From the IMG/VR virus record IMGVR_UViG_3300012979_001162, positions 1 through 64,000 of that record: a stretch of DNA of 64,000 bases. One strand, 5' to 3'. Positions 15,655 through 57,923 of the stretch are shown here, in pieces. The stretch is from a virus. Taxonomy: Duplodnaviria > Caudoviricetes. The notes beneath the pieces are model-generated. The model was not told the origin of the DNA and did not search any database. It saw only the letters and a program-made list of their open reading frames with translations. The position numbers and the translations under genes were made by a program. Within the stretch, counting starts at the first letter, position 1, and the number at the start of each line of letters is the position of its first letter.

Positions 15655-18600
15655 AATGCTATAATTCAGGATGCGGATTCCGTAGGAACTGCCCTGAAAA
15701 CAACTTCGCTCCGTCTTCGTGGAACCTCAGTGAAGGTTTTAGAGGAAGAAGGATTAGACTCTGACGGCGCAATTGAATCTACGTCAAAACTTCGTAGTCA
15801 AGTTTTAGCTACTGCTGGCGTGGATATTTTAACCGATTCTGGCGCATATAAGAGCACGTATCAGATATTATTAGAAATTGCAGAAGTATGGGATAGGATT
15901 ACTGACGATAAAGCCAGGGCTGGATTATTGGAACTCCTAGCCGGCAAGCGTAACAGCTCAGTCATTGCAGCTCTACTTCAAAATCCAGAGAAACTCGAAG
16001 CTGCCTACAAAGATGCACAAAATGCCGAAGGTAGTGCATTAAAAGAAAACGAAAAATACCTTGACAGCATCCAAGGTAAAATTGACCAATTTAATAATAC
16101 CGTTCAAACCCTGTGGAGTAATACACTTGATAGTGATTGGGTAAAACGTATTGTTGAAGCAGGAACTTGGCTCTTTAAAATTCTTGACACATTGAAACCA
16201 ATTTCGGTATTAATTGCAGGAATTGCTGTATATTTAAATAAAAAATATAATTTTGTAGATTTTAGTAATTTATTTACTGGCTTTAAAGAGGCCTTTTCAA
16301 ACTCTAAGGGACCAAAAGATTTCTTTAAGAATTTGAAAAATGGATTTAAAGATACTGAAATCTCGATAGAAAAAGCTAAAGAAAAATTAAGGGAACTAGA
16401 AGAACAAAAAACAAAACTTGGTGATCCGAAATCCGAAAAGAACCGTCGTAAGGTTGATGCTCTTGACCAAGAAATAAATGCATATAAAGAAATGCTTGCG
16501 CCAAGTGAGGATTTGATATCAGCGCAAAATCAGTTAAACGCTGCAGAAAAGAGACTAGCTAATTATAAGGGCGACAACGCAAAGACTATTCAAAAATATG
16601 AGCGTGAAGTTAAAAAGGCAAAATTAGAAGTTGATAATCTTACAAATGCACAACAAAGAACTGGTAAAACAGGTAAAACTGCTTTTTCCGGATTAGGTAA
16701 GGGCGTAAAAGCTTTCGGAAAACAGGTTGCCTCGGTCGTATCTCAGATGCTTATTATGTTAGCAATTACAAAGATCATTGAATTGTTATTCAAAGCATTT
16801 GATGCCTTAATAACTACTCCAGAAGAGGCCGCCGAGAAATACGAAGAGTTAAATGGCGAGCTCGATACTCTTAAAGATAATTTAAAAACAATCGAGGGTG
16901 AATTATCAGCAATTGATGATAAAATGGCAGATTTGATTGCAAAAGGGCCATTAACTTTTGTTGAACAAGAAGAACTTGATCGCTTAAAAGCAGAAAGAGA
17001 AGAGCTTGAGCGCACACTTGAGTTGAATGAACAATTGGCAAAACAGAAACAGCAGCAAGTTAATAACCAAACAAGTGACCAGGTTGAGTATTACCGAAAC
17101 AAGGGCGTTAAGTCTGGAAAAACTACCGCTGAAAAGACTGGAAGTGGCGCTGCTACGGGAACTGCCATTGGTGCCGGGGCTGCAGGACTCGCTCTTACAG
17201 CGACGGGTGGTGCGGCTGGATTAGCAACGACATTGGGTGTTACTGGCGCTACACAGGCATGGAATCCGGTCGGATGGGGACTCTTGATAGCTGCGGCAAT
17301 TGTAGCAGCCGGAGCCATTATTGGCACCGCTGTTGGTGCCGCTAGTGGTGCTCTCGAAGAGAAGGTTGGCGACTCCATTGAAAATATGGAGGAGAAGCTT
17401 GCGGAAAAAGAAGCAGAAGTAGAAAAAAGAAGGGCAAAGTACCAGAAAACTGGAAAAGATGGCGATAGAAAAAAATATGAAGAAGCGCAGAAAGCACTAA
17501 GCGACTATCGTGGCGAAATGGCCAAATACTTCACAGAAATCGATGCCATGTATCAAAATGTTGATTTGAGTACCATAGAAGATCCAGACGAATACAAACG
17601 CCTCAAAGCAGAGATGAACGACTTCTATAATGAGCGTGATAAATGGTTAATTAAGTCTGGGGCGGAGGGTGCGGAATCTAATGCTATTGAACGCATATTC
17701 AGCAAAGATGATTATAAGAACGCGTCCGATACTATTGATACTCTGGTAGAGAAGCTTAAAAAAGACCCGACTGACCAAAGTGTACTCAGTCAAATTAGCG
17801 AACATTGTAAGGTTGCCGAGGCAGACCTTCAGGCAGTAGGTAGTTCTGTTGATGCCGCGAGAAATTACTTTACAATGCTTGGTCAGAACGCTGCATTTGA
17901 TACCTTGGGGGGCAAGACGGCAGAAATAACGTCGGCAACATCGAAATTACAAGCATTGTTGTCTAACATAAAATCTGCTGATTTTACTGGGCTTTTTGGT
18001 CGAGGTGGTGAGGTTAATAAAATCGCCATCGCAGAGTACTTTCAGGGTACATCTGAGGCTACTCGTACAGAAATCGCAAAACTTGTCAAGAGTATCAACG
18101 ACGATAAGATTAGTGTAGAGGATGCATTAAAGCAGTTTGAATACTTCGGTATTGATGCTACTATTGATATTTATCTCAAAGAGAACGCCGTTAATCTTGA
18201 GGAGGTAACAGAAAAAATTGATAACATTCAAGATGCATATTCCGCTTTATCAGACGCGGTAACTCAATATAATGAAAATGGTTATCTCACACTTGATAAT
18301 CTACAGGCATTATTAAGTCTTAAGCCGGAATATCTTGCGCTGTTGCAAATGGAAAACGGGCAGTTAAGCATTAATCAGTCTGCAATGGAAACTATGGTAC
18401 AGGCGAAGTTGGCGGATGCCAAAGCGACCGTTATCCAAAGTGCAATGGAACAGCTTCATGCTTTAGCGTCAAGAACAGCGGCCGATGAGGTTAATAATAG
18501 TGCGACCGCCGCATCTAATGCGGTTAGCAGTCTTGGTGAATATGCTAGTGCTCTTGGAACTGTTTCTAAGGACGCAATTGTTGCGGCGGGCGCCGTTACT

Positions 18601-19581
18601 GCATTAAACGCAGCCGTTGCAGGGGCTAAAGCAAACGAATTGGTTGATCAATCTGAAATTGATACTATTATGTCAACTATGAATAATAGTTTATTGATGA
18701 TTGACAAGCTCGGAGCTAACTTGTCTACGAACTTCAATCCTATTATGGGTAATGACACCGATAAAGATAAAGACGGAAAAGACGATGATGAAGAAGACAA
18801 GATTGCGGATGGCTGGGAAAAACTTCTCGCCAAATACGAAAACAAACTCTCTCTTCTTTCTAACGAGCGCGATCTTATCCAAGCCGAAATAGATAAAGCT
18901 GAAGCTCGTGGTGGAAAGGCGTCTTCTAAGAATTACGAAGATTTGATTCGTAATTCTGCCGAAGAAAAAGCATTACTTGAAGAAAAACAAAAAGCTCTAC
19001 AAGAATATCTTGACGCCAATGCTAACGCAATAGACCAAGACACTTGGACTGATTACAATAACGAAATCAACGAAACCGCCGTTGCAATAAAAGAATGTGA
19101 AATTAATACAATCGAATGGGCAGGGGCTATTCGTGAAATTGATTTGCATTATTTTGAACAAATTACAGATGAGGTTTCTCGCCTTGGCGAAGAACTTGAT
19201 TTTGTTAATAGTTTACTCGAAGATGAAGAGGTTGCCGATGAGAACGGTAACTGGAGTTCTGCAGCACTTACTCGTATGGGTATGTATACTCAACAAATGG
19301 AGATGGCTGCAGTAGAAGCTGCGAGATACCAAGATGAAATTGATAAGGTTAATGAACAATATGCAAAAGGCGAGTTGAGTGAAGAGCAGTATCAAGAGGC
19401 GTTGTCTGACCTTGTAAATGGACAACAAGACGCTATTCAGTCTTATGAGGACGCCAAGGATAGCATCGTTGAATTTAATGAGGCTCGTATTGACGCAATT
19501 CGTGAAGGCATAGAAAAAGAGATTGAGGCATTCCAGGATTTAACGGATGCTAAAAAAGAAGAATTAGACGCAGAAAGAGAT
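15655..19581 (+). CDS. Tape measure protein, exon 3 (1309 codons)
   Basis: In frame with ORF 15730; GAYKSTYQILLEIA...LLAGKR...YLDSIQGK TMP motifs, TM segments, coiled coils. Confidence 0.9.
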
Positions 19582-19769
19582 TAAGTATTAAACTTACTTA
19601 GTCCGCTATAATACGAAAGTTTATAGTGTATCCCTTTTAATTGCTGGGACTTCCTTAGAGTCTCACAAACAACAACGTGGTTGGTGACAACGAGCGTGAA
19701 TGTTTAAAAATTGTGAGAATTGGATAATCAGCAGCCAAGATTTGTAATATTATTTGTTTATTTTGCTAA

Positions 19770-19798
19770 TTGACAAAACAAAATGATTATGGTATAAT
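19770..19798 (+). promoter_or_regulatory. Consensus sigma-A promoter inside intron 3, with the 17-bp box in its spacer
   Basis: TTGACA-N17-TATAAT with extended TG. Confidence 0.8.
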
Positions 19799-20023
19799 AT
19801 TACAAATAAGGTTCAACGGCCATTCCCTGAAATGGGATTAGGGGCAAGTGTCCCGAAATGGAGGGTGCCTAAGGTCATTACAGTACAAAATGATTATGGC
19901 AAATGATATGGTCTGCACTTCGATGAAAGTCGGAGAAATTACTGAAAAGTAAACTGTGAGATTTAACGAATCTAAAATTAACAAATTATACAATACAAAA
20001 TGATTTAACAAGGAGGTGAGAAT

Positions 20024-21337
20024 ATGGCACAAAAGAAGACAAGAGAGGAATATGTTGAAGAATTAAAAATTAAAAATCCAGATATAGAACTGGTGGGAGA
20101 TTATATTAACGATCATACAAAAACGTTACATCGGTGCAACAAGCATAATGTATTATGGGATATATCTCCAAACAAAGTGCTATTGGGTAGAGGGTGCAAA
20201 GAGTGTGGACAAGAGAGATACAGAGATAAAAGAGGCAAGTCTGAGAAACGATATATTCAAGAATTGGCTGCAAAGAATCCTACAATCAAATTAAAAGGTA
20301 AATATATCAATTACAATACTCCTGTAGAACATTACTGTGAGACACATGATATGTTATTTGATATTAGACCAGGTGATGCGTTGCGCGGCAAAGGATGTAA
20401 AATGTGCAAGTCTGATAAGCTAAGAGCCAAGTTGTTAAAACCAGAAGAAGAATATGTTAAAGAACTTGCAGATAAAAATCCTAATGCTAAACTAGTCGGA
20501 AAATATATGGGGATTGATGTGGCTACGGAGCATCAATGTTTAATTCATAATGTAGTGTGGATGGCGTTGCCACACAATGTTTTATACGGTAAAGGCTGTC
20601 GTCAGTGTTTGGCTGAAAAGATCGGGAATCGACTTCGTAAGCCGGAGGAACAATATATATCTGAATTATCGGTTGAAAATCCTGATATAAAATTGGTTGG
20701 CGAATACATCAATGGGAAGACGCCAACCGAACATTACTGTGAAAAACACAGTCTTGTTTTTAATATTTCCCCAGAATGTGCTTTGCGAGGATATGGTTGT
20801 CCCAAATGTGCTTCGGAGAAGCTTAGAACGCAGTTACTTAAGCCTGAGGAGCAATATATATTGGAACTACAAATACAACATCCATATATTGTGTTGTGCG
20901 ACAAGTATGTTGGAACACACGTAAATACACCACATGAATGTTTGTTGTGTGGACACAAATGGGAGCCGAGGCCTGCAAATTTATTGTCGGGTATAGGCTG
21001 TCCTTGCTGCAATGAATCTAAAGGTGAAAAGGCGGTTACCGAATGGTTAAAACATCGTGACATTAGGCGTGTTCCACAGAAAAAGTTTAGTGATTGTTGT
21101 GACCAAAGAGAATTGCCCTTTGATTTTTATTTGCCAGATTATAATACTTGTATTGAATATCAGGGCAAACAACATTATGAGCCAATAGAGTATTTTGGTG
21201 GAGAGGAAGCGCTGTTATACACCCAATATCATGATCAAATTAAGTTTGATTATTGTATTACAAACAGTATTAAGCTCATTTGCGTTCCATATTGGGAAGA
21301 TGTGGATGAATATTTAAATAAAAATTTGTTAATTTGA
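20024..21337 (+). CDS. Intron-encoded homing endonuclease (five ~67-aa Zn-ribbon repeats plus Vsr/DUF559-like domain)
   Basis: Repeats KNPxIxLxGxY...HxC...GxGCxxC; C-terminal SKGEKAV...LPFDFY...IEYQGKQH; AAGGAGGTG RBS. Confidence 0.82.
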   Translation: MAQKKTREEYVEELKIKNPDIELVGDYINDHTKTLHRCNKHNVLWDISPNKVLLGRGCKECGQERYRDKRGKSEKRYIQELAAKNPTIKLKGKYINYNTPVEHYCETHDMLFDIRPGDALRGKGCKMCKSDKLRAKLLKPEEEYVKELADKNPNAKLVGKYMGIDVATEHQCLIHNVVWMALPHNVLYGKGCRQCLAEKIGNRLRKPEEQYISELSVENPDIKLVGEYINGKTPTEHYCEKHSLVFNISPECALRGYGCPKCASEKLRTQLLKPEEQYILELQIQHPYIVLCDKYVGTHVNTPHECLLCGHKWEPRPANLLSGIGCPCCNESKGEKAVTEWLKHRDIRRVPQKKFSDCCDQRELPFDFYLPDYNTCIEYQGKQHYEPIEYFGGEEALLYTQYHDQIKFDYCITNSIKLICVPYWEDVDEYLNKNLLI

Positions 21338-53813: not shown

Positions 53814-54905
53814 CTATATTATTTGATTATTCTGCAAATTGGATTGGTTATCATTTAAAGAGTTGTACCATTCTATAAAATCATCTATTTGCTTTTTTAC
53901 TTTTTCTGACTTCACAGGGTTAATCCACGGTATTCTGTATATTACAAATCCATTTGCGGTTAATCTTTTATCTCGTAGTGTATCATGTTCTTTTCTCTCT
54001 TCGTATTGATGCTGCTTCCCATCAATCTCAAGATCAATATATCCATCGATTAAAAAATCTAAAAAATAGCATCCTTGCTCATCAATGCCTATATCTGTTT
54101 TCTTGAGAGTATATTCTGGTTCATATTGTAGTTTATTATTTGTTAACACTCTCTCCCAAAATAACTCGGCATAACTACGAATCTTTCTTGTTTTCCATCC
54201 AATGTGTTTGCCCTCGTCAATCAATCTTTTCTGAACTTCTGTTCCGATTTTAGATCTTTTGGCATGAGAGACTTCGGATGTAGTAACATAAGATTCACCG
54301 AATTCATTTCTTAAGTCATTTATGGTTTTATCGTGTTGCTTAAGGTGGCTAGCATTAATGTTTGCTAGTCTGACATTACAATAAGGGCAAACAACAAAGT
54401 CAACACCTTCAACTTTGTCTAATGTGTAATGTTTTAAATTTCTATACGTTATCACACCTTGCACGTATAAATCTTTTGTACCGTTCGCATATTCATTGAA
54501 ATTTATACGCACATCACATTCATTTTGCTGTTTTTCAGTTTGTTGAGCATATCTTTCCCTCAAGGAATTTGATATTTTAATTTTACTTTCGGAAGTATGT
54601 ATGCGTCCTTTGTTGTTGTGTTTTGCAGCACAACTACTGCCGCAAAATCGTTTTCTTTGATAATCTGCAAAGCTATTTTTTGCACTAATTGGAATTAATT
54701 TTCCACACTCTTCACAACACTTCGTTACAATTTCTCTTTTATGGTTACATTGCTTGGCAACACCAATCGCTCGTTTCGGCATGTCATGCTCAAAGCCACA
54801 TATAGTACACTTAACATGATACATTTTATGACCGTCATTCGATTTATAGCCGCAAAGATACAATACCTTATGAATGCCTATAACCGTTCCTATGATATCA
54901 TCCAT
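53814..54905 (-). CDS. Free-standing homing-endonuclease-like protein (Zn fingers, NUMOD3, DUF559/Vsr-like domain) at the 3' end of the tRNA cluster
   Basis: GGAGG then ATG 54905; SYAE...YFLDF...LEIDGKQH...DTLRD..L...G..IYRI. Confidence 0.8.
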   Translation of the reverse strand: MDDIIGTVIGIHKVLYLCGYKSNDGHKMYHVKCTICGFEHDMPKRAIGVAKQCNHKREIVTKCCEECGKLIPISAKNSFADYQRKRFCGSSCAAKHNNKGRIHTSESKIKISNSLRERYAQQTEKQQNECDVRINFNEYANGTKDLYVQGVITYRNLKHYTLDKVEGVDFVVCPYCNVRLANINASHLKQHDKTINDLRNEFGESYVTTSEVSHAKRSKIGTEVQKRLIDEGKHIGWKTRKIRSYAELFWERVLTNNKLQYEPEYTLKKTDIGIDEQGCYFLDFLIDGYIDLEIDGKQHQYEERKEHDTLRDKRLTANGFVIYRIPWINPVKSEKVKKQIDDFIEWYNSLNDNQSNLQNNQII

Positions 54906-55060
54906 ATATTCCCTCCAATCATTTGTTTTGTTATGGTACCAGATGTTAGTACTGCCCTGATCCTCGAAACCCCAAATTTCGCATGCTTCTTTCACACCCC
55001 ATCTGATATTTTGTAAGTTCTTAATTATAGGGAAAGAACTGTGACTGTAAGAAAACCATT

Positions 55061-55152
55061 TGGCTGGGAAGATGGGATTTGAACCCATGTAGGGAACTTC
55101 TTCCTTTGTGCCAGAGTCAAAGTCTGGTGCCTTACCGCTTGGCGACTTCCCA
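55061..55152 (-). tRNA. tRNA-Gln(UUG) with a 22-nt variable region
   Basis: TGGGAAG/CTTCCCA acceptor, CCAGA-CTTTGAC-TCTGG, ATGGG-TTCAAAT-CCCAT, GCCA end. Confidence 0.88.
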
Positions 55153-55240
55153 ATATCGAAGGGCGATTTTTAACTCTTTCGAGAGGCCAATCGCCGTAGC
55201 CTAGCAAATCGTATATACGATCAGCCGATTCATTATAAGA

Positions 55241-55336
55241 TGGCGGAAGACTTCGGACTTGAACCGAAACGCCGAATGACTTCGACTACTCATTGATTAG
55301 CAATCAACTGCCTTACCAAATTAGGCTTAGCCTTCC
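55241..55336 (-). tRNA. tRNA-Ser(GCU)
   Basis: GGAAGGC/GTCTTCC acceptor, GTTGA-TTGCTAA-TCAAT, long V arm, TTCGG-TTCAAGT-CCGAA, GCCA end. Confidence 0.9.
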
Positions 55337-56470
55337 ATAAGTACTCCAACAACCGCTATTGATAAGTAGCGATACGGTGATTTACCCTGATCCGCAACAG
55401 CAACACTACACAACCCGACCTTTTATGTGTCGTATATCGGGTAACGACTATCTCTGTTGTTGGCTTTATTGCACCATCCGTGAAAACGAATGGAGGAACC
55501 TTTACCACGACTAGTGGGTAGGCATTGTGGCTGGACTTACATCTCGGTGAGAAGGCCCTTCCACCCCAATCCGATAGGCTGTTCAACTCTCTCCATTTAC
55601 TACAGCTTCTTACAACGCTACTAAATACTTCGTTTGCAACCTCCATAATTAGCACTTCGTAGCACCTATCTCGCATATAAACCCTTGATTCGCTTATAAA
55701 GCAGGTTCAAGAAACCCTAACGAAATCGCACCGCAGGACGTAATACGAAATCTCAACTCTTCCCACACAAGGATGGGCGAGCAATGACTACTATCCCGAC
55801 ATACGAACCAGCTTTACACTTATTCGTGTCCGTTTTTGTTGTTTGCATAACCGCTCAGCACGGCATTGTGCTTATCAATGTCTTGGCACATTTGAATAGT
55901 AGTAGTGTGAGAGAAAATTATGGGGAACATCCCCATACGAACGTAAAATTCGCATCCCAAGGTACTTCGTGTTGACGAAGCAACTACTAGCCTTGGAGAC
56001 GCTACGGCTCACTCTAAAAATCTCGTTTATTTCACAAGTTGTCATCTTGTTATTTCCACTACCAACGACAAAGATTTCTGCCGTTTCACAATTCCACCCT
56101 GGGACACTTACGCCGTAGCAGAGGTGCGGGTGGTCAATTTTTGACAACTTAATGTTGTCTACCAGTTGCATTTAGCAACGCAGGGGGTTTCGCCTATTTC
56201 GTTTTTCATAGCAAGCCTACATACGACCTCATCTTGCATTTCCTACCGGACTTCGGTTTACTGCAGACACCGAAGTGGACTCGTATGCTTCCAATGGCTT
56301 TCTTTCCAGCCTAGACCAAGTTCATCTTACACTTGGAGAATTTGTCATCATTTTATCCAACTTTTGATGATGACCCAAAAGCTCGTTGCGTTCATCTATG
56401 GGTTAGACTACTTGTCGCTATAACAATACCCTCCTCATAAGTATCTTATAGAAGCAACCCCAAATGGCGC
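55337..56470 (-). ncRNA. Candidate large structured non-coding RNA (or several), ~1.1 kb
   Basis: No credible ORF or RBS; more GC-rich than other intergenic DNA; many perfect stems; bracketed by co-oriented tRNAs. Confidence 0.6.
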
Positions 56471-56472
56471 TT

Positions 56473-56548
56473 TGGTGCAGAAGGTAAGATTCAAACTTAC
56501 GAATACTAGTTTTTTATCACTAGTGCTTTCCAACTAAGCTACTTCTGC
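56473..56548 (-). tRNA. tRNA-like RNA with non-canonical 8-nt anticodon loop (pseudo-tRNA)
   Basis: GCAGAAG/CTTCTGC, GCTT/AAGC, CTAGT-GATAAAAA-ACTAG, GTAAG-TTTGAAT-CTTAC, ACCA end. Confidence 0.7.
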
Positions 56549-56857
56549 GCATGCCCCACACTTAACGTTAACAGGCTCCTACTGACCAGTGGGCTACGGC
56601 TATGACATTACTTCATTCTGCTTCGAAGGGGCATTTGTTATCCGCATTTCCTTACGGGCAAGACCGGCTTCAAACAAATGAGCTCTCAACTTCTCAAGAG
56701 TTTCTTTTAAATAATGGCTCGGCTCGTCACCCATTCCGTATGGGTCGCTTTATATGCCATTATGCCTTCTTACTTGCGCTCCATTTTCGTACATCGCTAT
56801 TCGACACGGTTGATACTCTTTTTTCATCAGTGGGATCACAACTTAACTAATCTGGTT

Positions 56858-56940
56858 TGGCAGGGGAGCGGCGACTCGAACACCGATAGCCTTTCGGCAC
56901 AGTTTTGGAGACTGCTGTCTTACCATTAGACGACTCCCCT
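56858..56940 (-). tRNA. tRNA-Trp(CCA) with an extra variable-arm hairpin
   Basis: AGGGGAG/CTCCCCT, GCAGT-CTCCAAA-ACTGT, V region GCC-GAAA-GGC-TAT, CGGTG-TTCGAGT-CGCCG, GCCA end. Confidence 0.9.
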
Positions 56941-57020
56941 ATGTAAGAGACTTCTAAAACCTACAAGGAAACTCCGTCTCGATGTTTTTTATACAGGAGG
57001 TACTCGTATGATGTAACGAG

Positions 57021-57097
57021 TGGTGATCACACTGGCATTCGAAGCCAGACTGGATGCGTTCTAAGCACATTGCCTCTACCTGTTGGGCTATGCGGTC
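57021..57097 (-). tRNA. tRNA-Leu(UAG) with short variable loop
   Basis: Leu-type D arm GCCCAACAGGTAGAGGC, ATGTG-CTTAGAA-CGCAT, 5-nt V loop, CTGGC-TTCGAAT-GCCAG, ACCA end; one C-A mismatch in acceptor. Confidence 0.82.
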
Positions 57098-57108
57098 ATA
57101 ATTGGCAC

Positions 57109-57822
57109 TCAAACTTGAATGCCATATACAGAAAACCACGTCTGATGTGATTTTCTATGTTTTGTTGATGGAGGTTCTTTGAGCATAGCAGAGATAAGCT
57201 CTTTTGTTTTGTTTACTCCGTACTCTCGTACGGATTTGTTGATAGTATTTATGCCTAATCCCAATTTTTGGGCCCACTGTTGTCCTGTTAATACTTCACT
57301 CTCAACTTCAATCCAATTGACCTTGCCTGCTCTTCTAGAATTTTCCTCCAACGGAATCCATCGACAGTTACTGGGGGAATAGTCTACGTCGGGATCAATT
57401 CTATCTATGGTTAGAAATTCTTCGTACCCATTGTTCAAAGCCCACTTTTCAAATTTACCAGGGTTATCCAACCACTCTTGACACACTTTAATACCCTTTT
57501 CCCCATACCACCTATAGTTTTTGTCATTTGGATTATAGCATCGAACAATGATGCCTCTGAAGATCTTACCAAGACGACTATTCTCCCATTTATGCCTATT
57601 AATAATGTACTCTCCGTTAGTTCTTAAGTGGGTGCATTTATTTGATAGTTTGCTTGGTGCAGAAACCCCACTATATGTAAATTCTGTTTCAAAACCACAT
57701 TCGTTGCATACACATTTATAAATTCGATGTCTGTACTTATCGGTTTTATCTGTTATATCTGCTATTGTATAGATTCCGTGCACTTCTCCAATGTGAGATC
57801 TTGGATCAAATTTTTCTACCAT
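57109..57822 (-). CDS. Free-standing HNH-like homing endonuclease at the 5' end of the tRNA cluster
   Basis: RCYNPN..Y..YG.KGIKVC.EW...LTIDRID...YSPSNCRW. Confidence 0.85.
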   Translation of the reverse strand: MVEKFDPRSHIGEVHGIYTIADITDKTDKYRHRIYKCVCNECGFETEFTYSGVSAPSKLSNKCTHLRTNGEYIINRHKWENSRLGKIFRGIIVRCYNPNDKNYRWYGEKGIKVCQEWLDNPGKFEKWALNNGYEEFLTIDRIDPDVDYSPSNCRWIPLEENSRRAGKVNWIEVESEVLTGQQWAQKLGLGINTINKSVREYGVNKTKELISAMLKEPPSTKHRKSHQTWFSVYGIQV

Positions 57823-57839
57823 AATATTATGTCCTTACT

Positions 57840-57923
57840 AATCATGCTGTATTGTGTACTAATTATACCACAATCATTTTGTATTGTCAATATATTTCCG
57901 TAATCGTTTACAATCTATTTACA
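57840..57923 (-). promoter_or_regulatory. Composite promoter heading the endonuclease-tRNA cluster
   Basis: TGTAAA-N5-TGTAAA(57923-07), N16, TTGACA(57890)-N17-TATAAT(57867), box in spacer (57888-72) and degenerate box (57856-40). Confidence 0.85.

Follow-up and report, generated by a model that had tools for sequence, protein, structure and literature searches.

Phage transfer RNA (tRNA) islands harbour two large non-coding RNAs, GOLLD and ROOL (Rfam RF03087), both of which form nanocages. The two lie near tRNAs and are possibly co-transcribed with them (PMC5737381), and in GOLLD a conserved half and a variable half are connected by a linker that can contain tRNAs (bioRxiv 10.1101/2024.12.08.627333). 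Small RNAs termed RNAC and RNAD originate from the tRNA region of phage T4 (PMC3014915), and a survey of IMG/VR in 2023 produced about 8,500 unnamed candidate structured RNAs (PMC10690425). Here we analyse a gap of 1139 nucleotides (nt; positions 55337-56475, minus strand) between tRNA-Ser(gct) and a tRNA-like element within the tRNA array of a tailed phage (Duplodnaviria; Caudoviricetes). The window, by which we mean the whole stretch of DNA that was analysed, comprises 64,000 nt and corresponds to positions 1 to 64,000 of the virus record IMGVR_UViG_3300012979_001162.

The original prediction, made from the letters alone, had described this region as a candidate large ornate non-coding RNA. 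We find that the gap is real structured non-coding RNA, which is conserved in blocks, contains covarying helices and consists of modules that are shuffled between relatives. What was not supported is the idea of a single conserved RNA of about 1.1 kilobases (kb), since only 39% of the gap has homologues and the modules occur alone or re-ordered elsewhere. The gap is best described by the fallback offered at the time, namely several smaller RNAs or a new class. In our opinion the gap is probably a chain of separately folding RNA modules (the H1 and alpha hairpins, A1, A2, the M2-M3 helix domain, the M4 hairpins and M5) with a lineage-specific insert of about 380 nt among them, and the released RNAs would act in trans.

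Comparison with described families places these modules in a known niche, the phage tRNA island, as uncatalogued structured RNA families outside Rfam. Rfam models were searched with cmscan against the window (gathering threshold), 54900-57300 (E<=10) and seven related loci (E<=5); there was no match within the gap to GOLLD, ROOL, OLE, raiA, drum, RNase P, tmRNA or an intron, and none to GOLLD or ROOL in the related loci, in line with the earlier failure to recognise GOLLD or ROOL hallmarks by eye. The scans otherwise returned flanking tRNAs only, plus one skipping-rope RNA in a relative, and blastn of the gap against 50,697 phage records found no match. GOLLD (Weinberg et al.), a large structured RNA of phages and prophages beside tRNA islands, resembles the gap in its location; however, it is the 3' half that is conserved in GOLLD, whereas conservation here is patchy, the modules are shuffled and no model matches. 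ROOL (Weinberg 2017) is likewise found in phages and prophages of gut and rumen Firmicutes, near tRNAs and possibly co-transcribed with them, and contains multiple pseudoknots, but its fixed architecture (about 581 nt, six multistem junctions together with three pseudoknots) is not seen here. T4 RNAC and RNAD are comparable by context, being small non-tRNA RNAs within a phage tRNA cluster. The gap also lies between tRNA genes and on the tRNA strand, and the T4 case agrees with the co-transcription and release by tRNA processing that we propose for it; the T4 RNAs differ, however, in being two defined species rather than a shuffled set, in a phage whose host belongs to another phylum. Skipping-rope and drum (Weinberg 2017) are small structured RNAs too, but neither motif matches inside the window, and the present modules have no Rfam family. 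A diverged drum RNA was considered as a candidate and rejected, as no drum match appeared at E<=10. The skipping-rope RNA mentioned above (RF02924, 64.9 bits) sits inside a related phage tRNA array, at L039 3121-3200 (plus strand).

That the region holds no credible gene, as stated in the original prediction, is borne out by its open reading frames (ORFs). Each of the six frames is interrupted by 12-27 stop codons, the longest stop-free run (116 codons) is within chance (shuffles 92.7 +/- 21.4), and the three longest ORFs have no Shine-Dalgarno sequence ahead of them and zero matches in Pfam and PHROG. The G+C content is 0.435-0.46 throughout the gap, as opposed to about 0.31-0.40 in flanking genes. 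Folding of the 5' half (55910-56475, minus strand) is more stable than that of dinucleotide shuffles (z-score -3.52, 0/100). The stems listed at the outset are present at the positions given for them, most of them in the minimum-energy fold, but a long-range GGGGTT/AACCCC pairing is absent from the predicted fold. We assign the RNA to the tRNA strand because covarying helices contain G-U pairs and because the central part of the 5' half, the orphan core, folds more stably on the minus strand.

In order to trace conservation, about 15 related tRNA arrays were gathered via three anchors, namely the neighbouring polymerase, conserved DNA words and a covariance model. Comparisons relied on ungapped windows and blastn with word size 7 in place of whole-gap MAFFT alignments, which are misleading because of large indels. 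This search, which had been proposed together with the prediction, yielded relatives and covarying helices in several blocks. Homologues in the fetched loci cover 447 of the 1139 nt (39%) by blastn, and the remaining 61% has none. The distance from the tRNA-like element to the next tRNA varies from 424 to 1139 nt among relatives, the window having the longest, and tRNA-type elements bound the gap in all of them; the earlier remark that the region is bracketed by tRNA-like elements is correct, with tRNA-Ser(gct) and the tRNA-like element at its ends. The relative G005, the polymerase of which is 94% identical, has in common with the window only both gap ends and a few islands, most of the middle being missing, and its gap, examined in detail, contains no ORFs. 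When domain A1, the pair M1-M2 and the hairpin with GACAAC were used in exact-pattern scans, no additional relatives emerged; one pattern match, L029, was discarded as it lies inside coding sequence with no tRNA near. The parts of the gap, in 5' to 3' order, are:

56385-56475, minus strand: leader, 91 nt, with no blastn match in any fetched locus
56316-56373, minus strand: block of the H1 hairpin (56345-56373) and the alpha hairpin (56316-56336), with the conserved alpha loop UGUAAGAUNAA
55941-56315, minus strand: lineage-specific structured core (orphan core)
55909-55937, minus strand: hairpin UAUGGGGA-UGU-UCCCCAUA (55919-55937), then a U/C-rich tract, joining the two halves
55786-55901, minus strand: domain A1, about 116 nt, with a 10-bp closing helix and three inner hairpins
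55745-55787, minus strand: motif A2, hairpin CCCA/UGGG followed by GAAGAGUUGAGAUUUCGU
55655-55666, minus strand: M2, the GCYAC segment of which would pair with GURGU of M3
55577-55606, minus strand: M3; the M2-M3 helix would surround a variable insert
55474-55523, minus strand: M4, two hairpins CCAC/GUGG and CCAUUCG/CGGAUGG around AAAGGUUCCU, also in G005 and G006
55344-55466, minus strand: M5, 123 nt, a pseudoknotted module ending 8 nt ahead of tRNA-Ser

M5 is the best-supported element of the gap. Its architecture comprises an 8-bp closing helix (P1), a hairpin whose loop pairs downstream to form an H-type pseudoknot (P2), an optional P3, and P4, which abuts P1. A search with the covariance model R1, built from three sequences with the window among them, retrieved 11 members, in which the window scores 144.9 bits by construction. 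In the resulting alignment of 11 rows, pairing holds in 95.3% of cells, and changes on both sides are seen in 16 of the 28 pairs, as compared with 4.7 +/- 1.7 in shuffles (0/500 as high) and no more than 7 in slid controls. This phage genome carries one copy. Two of the 11 members reside in a bacterial genome (G017, same order), where the closing helix is wholly replaced by UGGGUUUC/GAAACCCA and the pairing between loop and downstream strand reads ACUCGA/UCGAGU in place of ACCCGA/UCGGGU. In other members the pseudoknot is formed by GGGAA/UUCCC, GUUUC/GAAAC or GUGG/CCAC. At 70-190 nt, M5 constitutes a concrete and compact target for work on structure and function.

The bacterial copies also show that M5 is found outside phage tRNA arrays. 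They lie in a mobile-element region that has no tRNAs and carries both phage-type (Bro-N/ANT antirepressor) and defence-type (ToxN with a 33-nt repeat array, AAA_15 ATPase) genes. The locus itself (L052 2640-2742; L051 536-1330) is a classic type III toxin-antitoxin system, in which 3.1 perfect copies of the 33-nt repeat precede a ToxN-family gene; on its flanks are genes for an AAA_15/AAA_21 ATPase and a Bro-N/ANT protein. One M5-like RNA is located about 0.6 kb upstream of the repeats, the other 170 nt downstream of toxN. In the phage, between 55000 and 57200, a search for a ToxI-like tandem array, with repeats of about 33-36 nt, gave only short two-copy repeats at chance level and no adjacent ToxN gene. 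ToxI mimicry was discarded: M2 and the ToxI-like repeat of G017 have ACGAAGCC in common, an 8-mer at chance level, and tandem repeats are absent.

The remaining blocks of the 3' half display covariation as well. Domain A1 is 84% identical to its counterpart in L043, with 35 pairs predicted by RNAalifold, and three consecutive compensatory pairs turn CGA/UCG into UAG/CUA. A2 is 91% identical in L043, where its stem reads CCUA/UAGG. Both M4 stems covary, with CUAC/GUAG in G006 and UCAUUCG/CGGAUGA in G005. M2 and M3 are present in the window, G005, G006, L037 and G001 at a spacing of 48-98 nt, and their complementary segments, GCUAC/GUAGU in the window and GCCAC/GUGGU in the four relatives, can be read as a predicted long-range helix.

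It is the arrangement of these parts that speaks for separate modules. In L027, M5 stands by itself, with a peptidase-like gene on one side and tRNA-Gln on the other; in L043, the 593-nt gap from tRNA-Pro to tRNA-Ser is occupied by the 3' half alone; and G006 has M1-M4 without M5. The positions of A2 and of the GACAAC hairpin differ among relatives; A2 directly precedes M5 in L043 and lies 250 nt upstream of it in the window. Such shuffling points to selection at the level of the single module. The gap shows that phages of the gut Clostridia type house further structured RNA families, absent from Rfam and behaving like mobile cassettes, in the niche of GOLLD and ROOL.

We infer that the RNA of the gap is transcribed, processed, stable and active in trans. 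The operon would be transcribed from an upstream promoter of the sigma-70 type. Cleavage by RNase P at the tRNA-Ser 5' end, together with tRNA 3'-end processing at the preceding tRNA-like element, might then free the intervening RNA, either whole or cut further between modules. Closed helices and pseudoknots would stabilise the released pieces, which could act in trans within the infected cell, as has been proposed for other RNAs of phage tRNA regions.

The 5' half contains the lineage-specific insert. The window and L036 diverge directly after the tRNA-like element, and similarity resumes in the H1/alpha block (86% identity with L036), in which the alpha stem shows two compensatory A-U to C-G changes relative to L036 and L034. 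The orphan core contains most of the stems listed in the original prediction and includes a domain closed by GCUACGGC/GCCGUAGC (56001-56119), a domain closed by CAUACGA/UCGUAUG (56220-56287) and a hairpin at 55957-55996. The fold of 55941-56319 has a z-score of -2.90 on the minus and -1.99 on the plus strand versus shuffles; this stability (z -2.9) and strand asymmetry suggest that the core is structured. The sole part of the core with homologues is the GACAAC/GUUGUC hairpin (56143-56159), which in G005 and L037 directly follows the tRNA-like element, so that the window has about 315 nt extra ahead of it relative to these two. The joining hairpin at 55919-55937 has homologues in G001, L037 and L042, among which a U-A pair is swapped for C-G. 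A scan marked this hairpin as terminator-like; such a role is doubtful, being weakened by the fact that its tail is a conserved UUCUCUUGG motif in relatives.

At the place of the window's H1/alpha block, some relatives show a different feature. L019 (1345-1402, minus strand), L030 (4639-4696, plus strand) and L037 possess a strong AAAGGAGG Shine-Dalgarno sequence and a conserved 12-codon mini-ORF (MRNS...), located inside a UACUUAG/CUAAGUA helix and, in L037, after the tRNA-like element. The window and L036 have lost this Shine-Dalgarno sequence (GUUGG) and do not preserve the frame.

As regards the setting, the source virus record measures 162.6 kb in IMG/VR and is about 95% complete. The polymerase is of the DNA polymerase III alpha type (PHP-domain), with 44-48% identity to counterparts in Clostridioides, Thomasclavelia and Bacillus phages, and the nearest relatives at the DNA level were obtained from one metagenome and metagenome-assembled genomes (MAGs) of fecal Clostridia and Acutalibacteraceae; the phage is of the gut Clostridia type. 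ARAGORN places every flanking tRNA on the minus strand. The array, in its own order, reads:

57862-57890, minus strand: candidate operon promoter TTGACA-17-TATAAT, 12/12 consensus, with TG, by consensus match only
57822-57109, minus strand: HNH endonuclease gene, first in array order
57097-57021, minus strand: tRNA-Leu, after the HNH gene
56940-56858, minus strand: tRNA-Trp, 83 nt
56549-56857, minus strand: conserved block, 309 nt, between tRNA-Trp and the tRNA-like element
56476-56548, minus strand: tRNA-like element, 5' boundary of the gap (Rfam tRNA 56.3 bits; no ARAGORN call)
55241-55336, minus strand: tRNA-Ser(gct), 3' boundary of the gap (ARAGORN and Rfam)
55158-55205, minus strand: nested hairpin GGCGAUU...CUCU-CGAA-AGAG...AAUCGCC in the spacer from tRNA-Ser to tRNA-Gln
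55152-55061, minus strand: tRNA-Gln, 92 nt
53814-55088: DUF559-domain ORF, last in array order (Pfam/PHROG search)

The promoter-like site at 57890-57862 could, on the strength of its motifs, serve the whole unit, and between 57532 and 55051 no second minus-strand promoter-like site was found. The tRNA-like element has intact cloverleaf stems and an anticodon loop of 8 nt (GAUAAAAA), preserved in L036; the L034 element has a similar loop (AAUAAAAA), to which ARAGORN assigns the 4-nt anticodon 'taaa'. The element might serve as a quadruplet-reading tRNA, as a decoy or as a handle for processing. In L030 (4506-4600), L034 (after the block-C homologue) and L038, the block is followed by a tRNA-like element of about 100 nt with two T-arm-like hairpins (GGUUCGA...), and because of its extra arm that of L034 is read as tRNA-Ser by ARAGORN. 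No other RNA of the array is as conserved as the block upstream of the element: identity is 97% with L040 and, over its 3' 127 nt, 94% with G006. At least 9 arrays contain it, in each case following a tRNA and immediately preceding a tRNA-like element. RNAalifold predicts 44 pairs in it, 12 of them changed on both sides, and it has no Rfam family.

Several observations weigh against a chain of separate modules. The alignment behind the M5 covariation counts had been fitted to the model, most helices outside M5 are supported by 2-5 sequences, and the 3' half (55337-55918, minus strand) folds no better than dinucleotide shuffles (z-score -0.74). For the orphan core, searches in IMG/VR relatives, metagenome loci and MAGs (including G007 and G008, the genomes of loci L042 and L043) returned no homologues apart from the GACAAC hairpin. 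Moreover, the window, G005, G006, L037 and G001 largely agree in the order of their motifs (alpha, hairpin, M2, M3, M4, M5), and this collinearity, taken together with the long-range M2-M3 pairing, means that the parts may act as one larger RNA. Such an RNA would be a new ornate class, a tRNA-bounded unit that perhaps extends to the upstream block of about 300 nt and has a conserved core and a variable periphery. It is consistent with the tRNA-type bounds in all relatives, with the compensatory change in the M2-M3 helix and with the high conservation of 56549-56857, always ahead of the tRNA-like element; GOLLD, too, is half conserved and half variable with linker tRNAs (bioRxiv 10.1101/2024.12.08.627333). 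A single unit is nevertheless hard to reconcile with modules that are alone or re-ordered in relatives, with 61% of the gap lacking a homologue, with the loss of most of the middle from so close a relative as G005 and with the lack of any Rfam signal for GOLLD or ROOL even at E<=10. We consider it unlikely, and retain the chain of modules.

The gap might also be mostly debris, that is, decayed tRNAs or scars of homing endonucleases and recombination among which a few hairpins function as processing or termination signals. Genes of the homing-endonuclease type (HNH and DUF559-domain) do flank the array, this phage has 4-5 tRNAs as opposed to 10-14 in relatives, truncated or odd tRNA-like pieces occur in the latter, and the middle of the gap turns over fast. 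However, the tRNA model at E<=10 within 55337-56475 matches at the flanking genes only and ARAGORN finds none inside. Compensatory changes in several helices, an orphan core whose fold is more stable than that of shuffles and favours the tRNA strand, and a G+C content raised over the entire gap equally argue against decay. We regard this account as quite improbable.

A bolder proposal joins the 1.1-kb region to the tRNA-like element with its disabled anticodon and to the block 56549-56857, as one giant modular RNA of 1.0-1.6 kb. We regard this as a doubtful, speculative extension. If true, it would represent a third phage 'ornate' class with an embedded tRNA mimic, comparable to the GOLLD linker tRNAs, and its swappable peripheral modules might tune binding or assembly, or decoy host defences that target tRNA or RNA.

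Hidden small protein genes in the orphan part are scarcely credible: ORFs of 98 and 106 amino acids (minus strand) and 85 amino acids (plus strand) are present and three relatives have the strong Shine-Dalgarno sequence with the 12-codon mini-ORF at the homologous position, but the ORF lengths are at chance, a Shine-Dalgarno sequence is absent, Pfam and PHROG give no match, both minus-strand ORFs cross covarying RNA modules or conserved hairpins, the 106-residue one spans M5, where indels of relatives are not multiples of three, and the signal and frame of the mini-ORF are not kept in the window or L036.

Minor features were noted elsewhere in the array and window. For the spacer hairpin at 55158-55205, conservation reaches 90-93% in G005, G006 and L037 but is lower in G001. 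The variable regions of tRNA-Gln and tRNA-Trp contain insertions of 19 and 10 nt, respectively, whereas the G005 counterparts have a normal length of 75 nt. A group I intron (Rfam 64.9 bits) is located at 19586-19935 (plus strand), between the large ORFs 15730-19584 and 20024-21337.
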